From Candidatus Anderseniibacteriota bacterium (GTDB lineage Bacteria > Patescibacteriota > Andersenbacteria > UBA10190), in contig JACPWO010000004.1 of the NCBI GenBank assembly GCA_016197005.1, forward strand, positions 6,305-70,304: a stretch of 64,000 nt of DNA, given 5' to 3'. The first letter of the stretch is position 1, and the number at the start of each line of letters is the position of its first letter. The position numbers and the translations under genes were made by a program. This document shows, in pieces, positions 3,001-40,926 of this stretch. A model generated the notes under the pieces. The model was given only the letters and a program-made list of their open reading frames with translations, was not told the DNA's origin and made no database searches.

Positions 3001-3807
3001 ACTGGTCTGCGTCTCTACATTAATGGCGCTGAAGACGCCAACAGCCCCGCCAGTACCAGTAGTATTGCCGCCATTAACGGCGGTACGGCTGCTGTCCAAG
3101 TCGGTATGATTAGTACCAGCTCCATTCCTTTTGATGGAAAGATCGATGATGTGAGGATATATAGCTCCGCTCTCACCTCTACTCAGATTGCAGCTCTCGC
3201 CGCTGGCAAGTATGCCGATGGGAATACTTCCGTTGCTACCTTCACCCTCAACACCGCGCTTGATGTGAACCACGACCTCTATCTCCAATCTGGCATCTTA
3301 GATGTATCTGCTTCTAACTGTTCTTCAGCTTCCTGTGCTATCACTGACGCTCGCAACTGGAACAACTACGGCGGTACGAGTTCCTTAACTGCTCGAACCG
3401 GTACCGTAACCCTTGATGGAACAGATCAATCCGTAAATGGATCAACGACCTTCTATAATCTCACAAAGAATGAGAGTTCGAACAACGCAACAGATGAAAC
3501 GGTGACGATGCAGATTAATCAGACAACGACGGTAAGTAGCCGGTTTACACTCGAAGGTCGGGATAGTGATGATCGCATTAATATTGTTAGCAGTTCGGCC
3601 GGCACGAAGCACACGATTGATGTAACAGCAGGTCAACAAGTTACCCACTGGGTTGATGTAAAAGATTCGCAATCTTCAACTTCCAATATTGCCTGTCAGC
3701 AATGCGTAAATAGCGGCGGAAATGATGATGCGGATGCTGCTCCTCATTGGTTATTTGGGGAGGGCAGTGGACGCAATCGCCTCGTGAGGGCTTTGGCAAC
3801 AGATTAG
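1..3807 (+). CDS. Giant secreted/surface protein with two LamG/concanavalin-A-like lectin repeats; 5' end lies outside the window (the reading frame is open from position 1)
   Basis: Frame 1 is open from nt 1 and in frame with the 148..3807 ORF. The motif ...DGTDDYV...DGK(L/I)DD(I/V)RIY...LT..(E/Q)(V/I)..LA.G... occurs twice (around aa 470-640 and 830-1030), which is a typical LamG signature. The motif VKDSQ.S..I.CQ.C.NSGGND.A.A.PHW is encoded both at nt 1-120 and at nt 3640-3760, implying a repeating module. The protein is rich in Thr, Ser, Gly and Asn. Confidence 0.6.
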   Translation, partial: VDHVDVKDSQASSNDITCQACTNSGGNDNAEASPHWVFQAGGSITVAGTVYSDEGSTPLTGGKTVSVAINGGVEASGETNTTTGVYSITSPPTTAGDVMTIYLENETEDAVTVTVNDGTNMSGVDLYQNKLITRHDNAGSLTNANLSTAQFGTGGSTVFSDLFTTASDTALLSHAPNTGTSWTKLLSFGNTTVNNLTVKAADYLQRGGGSGAVNTGSLYTANATYPSANYEVSVQQVQAQPDDDYSSIAARIQDANNFYVFWWSEGGGALGKVVSGASSSLGSTAVSIADGSIVKLRVEGTSIQVYDDSTLLIDATDSSITAAGKAGVGMGALKSNLLPSADLTLQRVDSFSVKTIGEDDITAIYSVTNGELTMVSGKELLVWGGDTFAPGGKINVDDIDINGTLTLSSNTAKVSGSWDATGGSFTSSGNVVFTSPSDETIISDGDAFNNVYINDGLIGYWKMDAGTGTTVVDSSGYGFNGTLTNSAGGWTSSAPSVNFTDPYALDFDGTDDYVDIADTDTLDVGPTADFTISGWFNRDTFTTMDTILAKKENTATTPGYLLYIHDTLDVLGFKVADGLTAYSVTSTSTFTSTGWNHFVVVWDQDSSANTKMYINGVAEGTPSGTIGNVGDLSNSLSLRFGTESDDGNPFDGKLDDIRIYNRVLTAQEVNSLAVGNQPATENTAASEFTLEDTLDVNGNLVLNSGELDTKSGEDNSITLAGEWHNNGGKFTPRSGTVTLDGSSSSQEIQSGGQNFNNLTVSGSGGWTMHDRLEVDGAFAQSAGTFSTSSSNYNIQSGDWDQTAGTFNPNSSTVTLKSSSNQTINTDDPFYDLQVEDPTPANLLGYWKFDEGQGTSAFDSSGNASTGTLTNTPLWTETVNSTTTYDNPYSLDFDGTDDYVTAGDIAAVDTVTALTVCAWVYHDTATTDDSIVSKTASATLATDGFMLFRDDVGSASARTDTYKWGVGDSADGDSVYIEGATNAGTASAWRNVCGTYTASSATGLRLYINGAEDANSPASTSSIAAINGGTAAVQVGMISTSSIPFDGKIDDVRIYSSALTSTQIAALAAGKYADGNTSVATFTLNTALDVNHDLYLQSGILDVSASNCSSASCAITDARNWNNYGGTSSLTARTGTVTLDGTDQSVNGSTTFYNLTKNESSNNATDETVTMQINQTTTVSSRFTLEGRDSDDRINIVSSSAGTKHTIDVTAGQQVTHWVDVKDSQSSTSNIACQQCVNSGGNDDADAAPHWLFGEGSGRNRLVRALATD

Positions 3808-37768: not shown

Positions 37769-37797
37769 TTGACATTTTAGTAATTTATGACTATAAT
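37769..37797 (+). promoter_or_regulatory. Perfect-consensus sigma-70 promoter TTGACA-17-TATAAT driving the DGR target gene
   Basis: Both hexamers match consensus exactly and the spacer is 17 nt. The promoter lies 138 nt upstream of the start codon. Confidence 0.55.
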
Positions 37798-37829: not shown

Positions 37830-37882
37830 ATGAGACGAGTATTTTGCAGTTTTTTTGTAAGACTCCAGAATACTCGTCTCAT
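37830..37882 (+). promoter_or_regulatory. Perfect 14-bp inverted repeat ATGAGACGAGTATT-N25-AATACTCGTCTCAT in the 5' UTR of the DGR target gene
   Basis: The repeat was seen directly in the sequence. It lies between the promoter and an AAGGAG SD. It is not followed by a U-tract, so it is not a terminator. Confidence 0.4.
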
Positions 37883-37935: not shown

Positions 37936-38841
37936 GTGATGACGATGACCACATCGATCACATCCGGTCAGAAGGTTCAGTACTTGAGAATGGTCGAAGA
38001 CGCTGCACGACGTGCAGCCAATTTGGCCCTTGAGAAGGTTGAAAGCCTCGACAAGACAGGTGCACAGCGACTGATCGAGCATGGCGACGAATTCGAGACA
38101 GCAATTGCCGAGCTCGTGGTTGCTAAGACGAGAGAGTTATCTCTCTCCAATCAGTTCGCCAACGAAGAAGTACCGTCAAACTACGGCTACCTCTCCGGCT
38201 ACAAAAAGCCGAAGGGCATGACCGAACAGACCAATCTTCTTCGTCAGCTTTTCCCTGGTATCGGTTTCGCCGACGAGCAACTGGCTACGCGCGACCTGCC
38301 GAAAGGTGCTGAAGGCTACTTTGCCATTCCGCGTTGGGAAACGTTGGCACCGACCTATGGCGAAGCCGTGCAGAAAGTGCTGGATATGATCAAAAAAACC
38401 CGCAACGGTAAGCTTTACAACTACTGTGAAGGGAAACTTGGTCCGCAGTATCTGCGTCAGCACGCCAAAACGTCAAAAGCGTTTCAAGTGCTCGGTGATC
38501 AACAAAAGGGCTACGACATTCTCGTGGTACCCTGCCAGTTTGGTCTCCGTCACAGAGGTCGTTCAGTGCGCCGAGCACGAGAAGTCATGATCGCCAGCGA
38601 ATTTGCTCTCGGAGCTTTCGCGAACGGCATCATGATTTTGACTCATCCGGAACGTCTTCAACACGATAACGATCTTTGGATCGACGGTGGTGGCGACGAA
38701 TTTTCTCCGGATGCCGGTGGTCGGTTCGACTTCGCGCCTAGCTTCGTCTTCGATGGTGGCAGGGTCAGGTTCGACGCGTTCTGGGTCCTCTATGCCCTTG
38801 ACCTCTATGGCTCTCCGTCTGGGTTCTGTCCGCAGAAGTGA
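37936..38841 (+). CDS. DGR target (variable) protein; the C-terminal approximately 45 aa are encoded by the variable repeat
   Basis: The 301-aa ORF's 3' end is a near-copy of the downstream TR, with differences only at TR adenines. The C-terminus reads ...GSPSGFCPQK. The GC content is visibly higher than that of neighbouring genes. Confidence 0.75.
   Translation: MMTMTTSITSGQKVQYLRMVEDAARRAANLALEKVESLDKTGAQRLIEHGDEFETAIAELVVAKTRELSLSNQFANEEVPSNYGYLSGYKKPKGMTEQTNLLRQLFPGIGFADEQLATRDLPKGAEGYFAIPRWETLAPTYGEAVQKVLDMIKKTRNGKLYNYCEGKLGPQYLRQHAKTSKAFQVLGDQQKGYDILVVPCQFGLRHRGRSVRRAREVMIASEFALGAFANGIMILTHPERLQHDNDLWIDGGGDEFSPDAGGRFDFAPSFVFDGGRVRFDAFWVLYALDLYGSPSGFCPQK
38704..38835 (+). repeat. DGR variable repeat (VR)
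   Basis: The VR aligns to 39218..39350 with about 23 mismatches, all at positions where the TR has A. The final 28 nt are identical (CTATGGCTCTCCGTCTGGGTTCTGTCCG). Confidence 0.8.
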
Positions 38842-38894
38842 TGCTTGTTCCTTGAACGCTTGGATCTTTTGTTTTCTTGATCCTTCGCGTCGAC

Positions 38895-38930
38895 GGGGTT
38901 TTCCACAGTTTGGAGACCCCGTTTTCTTTT
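38895..38930 (+). terminator. Hairpin plus U-tract downstream of the VR (intrinsic terminator; DGR targets commonly carry a hairpin 3' of the VR)
   Basis: GGGGTTTTCC-loop-GGAGACCCC forms a 9-bp stem with 2 G-U pairs and is followed by GTTTTCTTTT. Confidence 0.5.
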
Positions 38931-39217
38931 ACTTAATTTTTCTTAAACCATATATACTCATCTTCGAGTTAAGCTCATGTACGACCGTTTACGGATTGTC
39001 GTCGTTTACACTCTTTCTCTTCACGAGAAAAAGCCAGAATCCGGCTGATCACGCGTTTGCCGGAGCGAGCTTGTACGAGGAGATACTGCTTGTCTTTGCT
39101 CAAGGCAAACTTCGCTAATAAGCGGGGTGTTGCCACAAACAATACAGGAATAAGAGGCGTTCACTGATGCCTAGCATCGCCACCTCAAGTTCCAGTGACT
39201 CAGATAGGCAAAGACAA

Positions 39218-39350
39218 ATATCCGGATGCCGATGGTCAGTTCGACAACGCGCCTAACTTCAACTTCAATGATGGCAAGGTCAAGTTCGACACGAACTGGG
39301 TCAACAATGCCAATGACAACTATGGCTCTCCGTCTGGGTTCTGTCCGAAG
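39218..39350 (+). repeat. DGR template repeat (TR), A-rich with many AAC/AAT codons
   Basis: No ATG-initiated ORF is present. An in-frame TGA lies at 39164-39166 upstream. Asparagine-like AAC/AAT triplets occur wherever the VR differs. Confidence 0.8.
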
Positions 39351-39366
39351 TCTCTCCTTATATAAA

Positions 39367-39393
39367 GGCATCCATAGACGGATGCCTTTTGTT
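39367..39393 (+). terminator. Perfect 7-bp hairpin GGCATCC-ATAGAC-GGATGCC plus TTTTGTT immediately 3' of the TR
   Basis: The hairpin was seen in the sequence. It may terminate a TR transcript and/or the antisense avd. Confidence 0.45.
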
Positions 39394-39736
39394 ATCTAAT
39401 TGAACGGCTCCATCCGCCGAGTTGTCGGCCGATCTCATCAATAATTTCTTGCAACACAATGTATTTTTTGTTGTCGAGCGTTTTTGTATCTTTCATGAGA
39501 CGAACCAATAGTCGGAGTAAATTCAGTTTGGCACTGATCTGCTCAAGAGTTGTGGCTTTATTCACGGTTTTCGCATAGCCAGCAAGAAAAAGGTTTTCAA
39601 TAATATCCAGGATGAGTCGCTCACTCCACTCATAAATTGTAAAGCGATCTTGTTTCGGCACAGTCTTACGGTACTCGTGAAAAGTTTTGTAGAGTTCGTA
39701 GGCTTTCTTAAGAATAGGAATATCGCTATCGTTCAT
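39392..39736 (-). CDS. avd: Accessory variability determinant (Avd), a four-helix-bundle protein of DGRs
   Basis: The 114-aa protein aligns by eye to Bordetella phage bAvd: VPKQDRFT~IPRKHGVA, ENLFLAGYAKT~ELFIVAGKSNQ, LLRLLVRLM~LRFWLRFLAG, QEIIDEIGRQLGGWSRSI~QVLIAEVGRILGSWI. Confidence 0.7.
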   Translation of the reverse strand: MNDSDIPILKKAYELYKTFHEYRKTVPKQDRFTIYEWSERLILDIIENLFLAGYAKTVNKATTLEQISAKLNLLRLLVRLMKDTKTLDNKKYIVLQEIIDEIGRQLGGWSRSIR

Positions 39737-39741
39737 AGGCT

Positions 39742-40817
<1,076 letters not shown>

Positions 40818-40926
40818 ACTACAAAACTGTTTTTGCGAAGTGACAGTCATCACTTTTCTTTCCTCTTTGGCCTGCTACACTTTATATTATAGATGCTTAT
40901 TCCATGAACGAAGGAGGTGACGGTAT

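Follow-up and report, generated by a model that had tools for sequence, protein, structure and literature searches.

How is the template RNA of a DGR produced, and how is its reverse transcriptase (RT) expressed, when the gene for the accessory variability determinant (avd) lies on the opposite strand between the TR and the RT gene? This question is raised by a locus in a 64-kb stretch of DNA (hereafter the window), for which the original prediction had described an antisense avd sandwiched between TR and RT together with hairpins on both sides of the TR. All of these elements were found at the places claimed. Our comparisons with related loci favor an ordinary CPR-type DGR of architecture B3 which is likely to be expressed as three separate units and not as a single avd-TR-brt operon as in BPP-1, a reading to which we assign a probability of about 0.75. 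The most interesting item at the locus lies outside the coordinates covered by that prediction and is a simple repeat within the RT gene which appears to gate its expression.

Components and layout of the locus

A complete DGR cassette was found at positions 37936-40817, where a target gene with its VR is followed by the TR, a bAvd gene on the minus strand and an RT gene on the plus strand (Table 1). The VR and TR share a 130-nt direct repeat of 83% identity (38706-38835 and 39221-39350) in which all 22 mismatches are of the TR-A to VR-N type. The downstream copy is identified as the TR because it carries the A at all 22 mismatches, and the template RNA is a transcript of the plus strand since this is the strand on which the adenines are mutated. 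With A-tolerant scoring the repeat stretches to 38692 and 39207 (144 nt), where 28 of 29 mismatches fall at a TR adenine. The VR ends 6 nt before the stop codon of the target ORF. The minus-strand ORF had been proposed to be Avd-like and a profile search confirmed this with a match of its product to the Pfam family bAvd (PF22296; E 3.3e-17, 63 bits, cutoff 40). Matches to RVT_1 were observed on both pieces of the RT gene (39742..40365 and 40392..40817), and the repaired RT of 357 aa matches the solved reverse transcriptase 8ub7 (E 1.3e-42) and carries the GIPIGNLTSQ motif. The N-terminal RT ORF is identical to a database protein (P0001) deposited from a Candidatus Andersenbacteria MAG, and the locus probably belongs to a genome of this group. 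A DGR-clade RT, an adenine-type TR/VR pair and a VR at the 3' end of a target gene are all present at this locus. A second avd, whether on the same strand as the RT (an arrangement that the original prediction had considered) or on the other, a second RT and a remote VR were all searched for by tblastn and none was found in the 64-kb window.

Table 1. Coordinates of the features of the DGR locus (positions are those of the window)
Feature	Coordinates	Strand	Basis or remark
DGR target gene, 301 aa	37936..38841	+	ORF; VR in C-terminal end
VR	38692..38835	+	Repeat comparison with TR; A-tolerant boundaries
CT[TC]G motif array, period ~8 nt	38842..38890	+	Directly 3' of VR and stop codon
Terminator-like hairpin and T-tract after target gene	38892..38930	+	12-pair stem 38892-38923, then TTCTTTT; aligns in relatives
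TATACT, conserved -10-like box, putative for TR RNA	38953..38958	+	TANNNT at aligned position
Structured 5' leader of TR RNA	38965..39206	+	RNAalifold, covariation
Leader hairpins with UACGG-containing loops	~38980-39003; 39031-39072	+	Covariation model
12-bp leader helix, 3' strand abuts TR 5' edge	39090-39101 with 39206-39217	+	Covariation model
Hairpins enclosed by 12-bp helix	39105-39133; 39147-39193	+	Covariation model
TR	39207..39350	+	Repeat comparison; mutated positions are plus-strand adenines
TR-specific 3' flank (CCGAAGTCTCTCC...), predicted clamp strand	39345..39362	+	Pairs with leader 39070-39089
Hairpin and T-tract, TR to avd stop	39364..39394		Terminator-like for TR RNA, possibly for convergent avd too
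avd, 114 aa	39392..39736	-	Pfam bAvd PF22296
Gap between divergent avd and RT start codons, 5 nt	39737..39741		Sequence
DGR reverse transcriptase, frame-broken in assembly	39742..40817	+	RVT_1 on ORFs 39742..40365 and 40392..40817
(GA)17 simple repeat in RT linker, candidate on/off switch	40293..40326	+	Directly 5' of GIPIGNLTSQ motif

The target protein (37936-38841) has no sequence match in Pfam or PDB, and many related loci have homologues with 35-60% identity at this place in the cassette. We noticed a perfect TTGACA-17-TATAAT match (37769-37797) upstream of the target gene, together with an inverted repeat (37830-37882; 24-nt arms, 88% complementary, 5-nt loop) located between this match and the start of the target ORF. 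These two elements could form a regulated promoter/operator of the diversified target gene.

Related loci were gathered with Avd as the query, 16 of them from species-representative genomes and 80 from metagenomes; this choice of query introduces no bias for the state or the orientation of the RT. Avd homologues with 45-83% identity were found at 96 loci. RT was observed to diverge from avd in 87 of the 88 loci with RT on the contig, which come from CPR and DPANN genomes and from metagenomes. The gap between the two start codons ranges from -2 to 42 nt across the family and is most commonly 3-4 nt; the 5 nt predicted for the window are exact. The TR lies 45-65 nt past the avd stop codon and the VR is found ~500 nt further upstream (~55 loci). 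The sole relative with RT on the same strand and downstream of avd, which is the canonical avd-...-RT order, is L011 (5001-6429), where a TR was not found on the side on which the other loci carry theirs.

This layout corresponds to architecture B3, which is written as "TR-(avd)-RT" with parentheses for the reverse strand and which accounts for 90% of CPR DGRs according to Wu et al. 2018 (PMC5758913); Avd is the sole accessory gene of this class, with HRDC, MSL and CH1 all lacking. The window has the same order (TR at 39207-39350 on the plus strand, avd at 39392-39736 on the minus strand and RT at 39742-40817 on the plus strand), with the target and VR upstream on the RT strand and a CPR host, and no difference in layout was seen from B3 as described there. 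The architecture had been called unusual, and a comparison with other Patescibacteria DGR loci had been proposed; this comparison shows a reverse avd to be the rule and not the exception, so that the antisense avd is a published norm of CPR DGRs and is not to be treated as an anomaly. A local inversion of avd in this genome, for which the orientation itself and nothing more can be cited, is therefore excluded by an orientation and spacing that are alike in 87 of 88 loci from many CPR and DPANN lineages and by the published B3 norm. Wu et al. compiled "putatively functional" DGRs, and the accessible part of their paper makes no mention of a repeat or frame break in the RT or of RNA structure upstream of the TR (PMC5758913).

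The proposed TR RNA unit and its flanks

Two alignments were made, first of the intergenic region between VR and TR (44 loci) and then of the entire putative unit (45 loci, alignment A2). The elements were found in a common order which consists of the target gene terminator, a TANNNT box, ~250 nt of conserved blocks and variable hairpins, the TR, the CCGAAGTCTCTCC motif and a hairpin. The upstream hairpin and T-tract had been expected near 38895..38930 and was located with its stem at 38892-38923. Of the 22 loci displayed, 20 have TANNNT at the position of the box, which is situated 8-12 nt upstream of the onset of leader conservation. No -35 element for the TR RNA was evident. The hairpin and T-tract predicted directly after the TR is also present; its stem had been given as 7 bp, which is too short, and consists of 10 pairs (39364-39389, AAAGGCATCC/GGATGCCTTT) followed by TTTTGTTA, with the T-tract running into the avd stop codon at 39392-39394. 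The sequence features of an intrinsic terminator, a G+C-rich stem-loop with a U-tract, are found at this site. The terminator pattern scan by itself was not significant (5 sites compared with 3.2 +/- 1.9 in shuffles). Strong hairpins with unrelated stem sequences were observed after the TR in 52 of 55 loci, with a T-rich 3' side in 39 and an A-rich 5' side in 18; L001, L003 and L006 are without a hairpin at this position.

The region between the -10-like box and the TR shows extensive covariation. RNAalifold gave 45 pairs for this leader, 41 of which show compensatory changes. In the alignment 95.3% of the leader cells were paired, compared with 40-50% when the partners were slid by 1-3 columns, and cells with double changes numbered 538 against 74-107 in the slid controls. 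The observed values were reached in none of 500 shuffles. No Rfam family was detected for the TR leader or its flanks at E <= 1 (38600-40900). The 12-bp helix at the 5' edge of the TR, which encloses two of the hairpins of the leader, may be the signal at which cDNA synthesis stops.

The 3' flank of the TR pairs with the 26 nt that precede the 12-bp helix, and the CCGAAGTCTCTCC motif of this flank is a conserved feature of the TR that the VR lacks at its own 3' end. Duplexes between the leader and its cognate flank have a mean of -15.2 kcal/mol, compared with -11.9 kcal/mol for non-cognate combinations, and the observed mean was reached in none of 5000 permutations. As examples, L005 and L010 have perfect 12-bp matches between leader and flank, and in L013 both strands have been completely swapped (UCAGACAC/GUGUCUGA). 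The pairing is predicted to act as a clamp which closes the TR into a loop held between two helices.

In several loci we also noticed a similar G+C-rich palindromic insert (CCTGCCCGCCGAAG...CGGCGGAGGCGGG) at differing positions in the leader or after the CTTG array (columns 160-195 of A2 in L029 and L075; columns 64-100 of the intergenic alignment in L037, L050 and L069). This insert may be a small mobile hairpin element.

An independent short TR RNA bounded by two terminators had been put forward as one explanation of the layout, and the -10 box, the covarying leader, the clamp and the T-tailed hairpin provide good comparative support for it. In our working model, the first unit would be a stand-alone TR RNA of ~430 nt from the plus strand (~38965 to 39394) which starts at the conserved -10 box just past the target gene terminator. 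This RNA would fold into a 250-nt leader with its last helix abutting the 5' end of the TR, the 3' flank of the TR would pair back to the leader so that the TR is held as a closed loop, and the transcript would end at the T-tailed hairpin. The second unit would be avd, transcribed convergently toward the post-TR hairpin, and the third would be RT, diverging from avd. The TR RNA would be used in trans by Avd and RT, and the resulting adenine-mutagenised cDNA would replace the VR. The roles of the leader may be to stop the cDNA at the 5' edge of the TR and to recruit RT-Avd. The transcript ends, the action in trans and the leader roles are inferred; the gene identities, the adenine-specific differences between TR and VR, the conserved layout, the covariation of the RNA fold and the recurring hairpin were observed directly.

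The flanks assigned to the TR RNA differ from those of the BPP-1 DGR. There, avd coding sequence forms the 5' flank, of which ~300 nt are required for complete retrohoming and a minimum of 20 nt for the synthesis of cDNA, and the 3' flank is a spacer of 140 nt in which cDNA is primed from A56 (Handa et al. 2018, PMC6182149). A motif in the 3' end of the BPP-1 avd halts reverse transcription, and a BPP-1 TR RNA that has been given a separate promoter is active in trans, with a 35-fold improvement in a reconstituted system (PMC12875486). Both systems have a DGR-clade RT, a bAvd-family partner, adenine-specific transfer from TR to VR and a hairpin downstream of the VR, the BPP-1 genes being arranged as an avd-TR-brt operon (PMC6182149). 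In the window, however, avd is antisense to the TR, which is preceded by a dedicated, structured leader without coding function and followed by a 3' flank of just ~45 nt (clamp strand plus hairpin). Leader and clamp would stand in for the 5' flank that BPP-1 draws from avd and for its 140-nt 3' spacer. The CPR model differs from BPP-1, the only well-studied DGR, in the position of the structured flank. The comparative data amount to a testable RNA model for CPR DGRs, which predicts the two ends of the RNA, five helices and a clamp that encloses the TR; no biochemical study of any member of this CPR-type family was found in the literature.

Another conserved element is located directly after the VR and the stop codon of the target gene, where five to seven CT[TC]G motifs were found in every related locus examined. 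The mean density after the VR is 4.0 motifs per 70 nt (46 loci), compared with 0.74 in shuffles and 0.5 after the TR, and the commonest spacing is 8 nt. The array occupies the position where BPP-1 has its IMH and stem-loop and may be a marker of the recipient site, as a counterpart of the IMH.

Expression of avd and RT

The original prediction had noted that the promoters of the divergent avd and RT genes would have to lie within each other's coding sequence. The geometry on which this is based is correct, and a TATAAA-like box was found upstream of avd; a comparable constraint for an RT promoter inside avd was not found. Codons 3-5 of RT are biased across the family to ATT TAT AAA, with top-codon frequencies of 0.89, 0.73 and 0.80. 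On the avd strand these codons read TTTATAAAT, which contains a TATAAA box that precedes the avd ATG by mostly ~10 nt (0-20 nt among the loci read). In the window the equivalent codons are codons 2-4 of RT (39745-39753), where the minus strand has TATCAT. The box fits an avd promoter with a short leader embedded in RT and may serve as one, but the ATT TAT AAA bias could equally reflect AT-richness at the start of translation; in a codon-variation test of the avd and RT starts, the AT bias was confined to RT codons 3-10. Synonymous variation in avd codons 2-12, where an RT promoter might be sought, was not reduced. Read-through transcription that starts at the TR promoter may therefore supply RT, in which case TR and RT would be co-transcribed in part.

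This leads to a different view of the locus, in which TR and RT share a transcript, as they do in canonical DGRs, and the post-TR hairpin is a leaky terminator, an attenuator or simply an RNA structural element. The RT mRNA would then start at the TR promoter and carry 345 nt of antisense avd as a leader, and convergent transcription would couple the levels of avd and RT. The lack of a constrained promoter-like element for RT inside avd agrees with this view, as does the start of the RT gene, which is without a Shine-Dalgarno sequence and has only 5 nt of non-coding DNA upstream, and in all relatives TR and RT share one strand. Against it, a T-rich tail follows the hairpin in 39 of the 55 loci, the fold predicted for the TR RNA is self-contained and closed by the clamp just upstream of that hairpin, and the antisense avd segment shows no conservation beyond its coding constraints. 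We consider this co-transcription to be possible but somewhat unlikely, and three separate units are preferred.

A simple repeat in the RT linker

The original prediction treated RT as one gene and missed that it is not a single ORF in the assembly. A change of frame at a (GA)17 tract (40293-40326) divides it into 39742..40365 and 40392..40817, and this tract is the only dinucleotide repeat of at least 5 units in the 64 kb. Removal of one GA unit gives an uninterrupted RT of 357 aa that aligns to 8ub7 in two stretches, where the segment encoded by the repeat replaces a 7-residue linker before GIPIGNLTSQ. The RT copy in the window is therefore off as assembled, its consensus being out of frame.

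The same site was surveyed in 80 loci with both halves of RT on one contig. A plain linker, usually of 36 nt, is present in 57 of them and all 57 are in frame. A repeat was found at exactly this linker site in the other 23, most often as (GA)8-21, with a degenerate (AG)6 in L012, (CA)16 in L014 and G7, G10 and G14 in L013, L082 and L028. Twenty-two of these 23 loci are out of frame (16 in one frame and 6 in the other), and only L003 is in frame. No stop codon was found in either half of RT among the repeat loci translated over full-length hits, and the differences between TR and VR in repeat-bearing loci are still almost solely at adenines. In the RT tree, the RTs with a repeat are spread across at least 10 clades, and sister taxa were observed to have different repeat types, for example G14 in L028 and (GA)8 in L034.

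Variation in repeat number was also observed between close relatives. Four 90% protein clusters hold alleles in different frames, three of them in all three frames, with N-terminal regions that are identical up to the repeat. Within a cluster, the count of RE units and the downstream frame are the only differences between alleles, which include full-length forms (P0171, P0122, P0141, P0147, P0154 and P0155) as well as both truncated frames. Off alleles were found on more contigs, with ~12 of 64 contigs on. The clearest example involves L099, where (GA)11 (3052-3073) gives an intact RT of 353 aa, and L100 and L101, where (GA)12 (3052-3075 in L101) gives a split RT. The single GA unit is the only internal difference between L099 and the other two in 5,618 aligned nt; the three contigs come from the JGI samples 3300044511 (L099) and 3300044510 (L101) and from a Logan assembly. 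Assembly or PCR stutter could contribute to differences in repeat length. As the differences extend to six units and the deficit of in-frame repeats is strong, biology rather than stutter is favored.

Simple sequence repeat (SSR) contingency loci are the phase-variable genes of Neisseria, Haemophilus and Campylobacter. The RT gene resembles them in that the window has a perfect repeat within the ORF and that changes of unit number between near-identical genomes of its relatives move the downstream frame on or off. It differs from them in that the switched gene encodes a targeted hypermutation enzyme and not a surface or restriction-modification function, and in that the hosts are CPR. These sequence comparisons point to the repeat as a candidate on/off switch of RT that operates by slipped-strand phase variation.

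The out-of-frame RT might instead be expressed by programmed recoding, through ribosomal -2/+2 or transcriptional slippage on (GA)n, with no switching at the level of DNA. A 2-nt shift on a GA repeat would re-pair the tRNAs or the RNA-DNA hybrid perfectly, as can be seen from the sequence, and the share of in-frame repeats (1 of 23) is below the 1/3 expected at random. There is also a precedent in the accessible part of Benler et al. 2021, where the DGR RT of the phage Quimbyvirus lies in three overlapping frames that are read as two programmed frameshifts, DGR RTs being otherwise predicted as single ORFs (PMC8008677). Quimbyvirus and the window are alike in having an RT that is not one ORF within an apparently active DGR; a repeat tract is not reported for Quimbyvirus in that part of the paper, whereas the RT described here has a single break at a dinucleotide or homopolymer repeat together with length variants at the DNA level. 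Recoding is at odds with the occurrence of both non-zero frames (16 and 6 loci), with the change of repeat type between GA, CA and poly-G, and with the direct observation of DNA-level length variants that include in-frame ones. No conserved stimulatory structure was detected downstream of the repeat (mean z -0.74, compared with -0.48 in controls). We therefore regard recoding as unlikely.

A hairpin 3' of the RT repeat was considered as a conserved frameshift stimulator. It was seen in the window and in L012, L029, L031 and L048, and it is absent in most loci, at a level equal to that of the controls, so that this stimulator was rejected.

The split of RT into two ORFs at 40293-40326 might also suggest that the DGR of the window is a decaying, inactive remnant. 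However, the sole lesion is one repeat unit whose removal restores the 357-aa RT, 22 independent loci are broken at the same site with both halves free of stops (in the full-length repeat loci that were translated), and the TR/VR differences of frame-broken loci remain almost entirely at adenines. Intact and split alleles moreover alternate among otherwise identical sequences, and decay is regarded as very improbable.

Slipped-strand phase variation thus remains the favored explanation of the repeat. Taken together with the RNA unit, it would define a family of CPR and DPANN DGRs in which a separately transcribed TR RNA of ~430 nt uses a leader and clamp in place of the Bordetella flanks and in which, in ~30% of loci, RT is gated by a (GA)n, (CA)n or poly-G contingency switch that is off in most population consensus sequences; for the two parts to hold jointly we see about an even chance. 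If this is true, a stochastic switch would be placed on top of a targeted hypermutation engine. Descriptions of a ~430-nt clamped TR RNA or of an RT repeat switch, and more generally of DGRs with phase variation, dinucleotide or other simple repeats or covariation, were not found in the literature searched, the scope of which did not extend to Paul et al. 2017. The repeat would account for the many CPR DGR RTs that carry two-fragment annotations or that surveys have dropped as non-functional. It further suggests that DGR activity is switched at the population level in CPR hosts, with consequences for our view of how hypermutation costs are kept in check and for the scoring of DGR "activity" in metagenomes.

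The strain of the window is also represented by two Logan contigs with identical Avd (L097:1-580 and L098:1-579), both of which stop within RT at the (GA)n tract, where the repeat has probably interrupted the assembly. Database RTs that end in ...RERERE may therefore be fragments from contig ends, and proteins with exactly this ending were left out of the frameshift counts given above.
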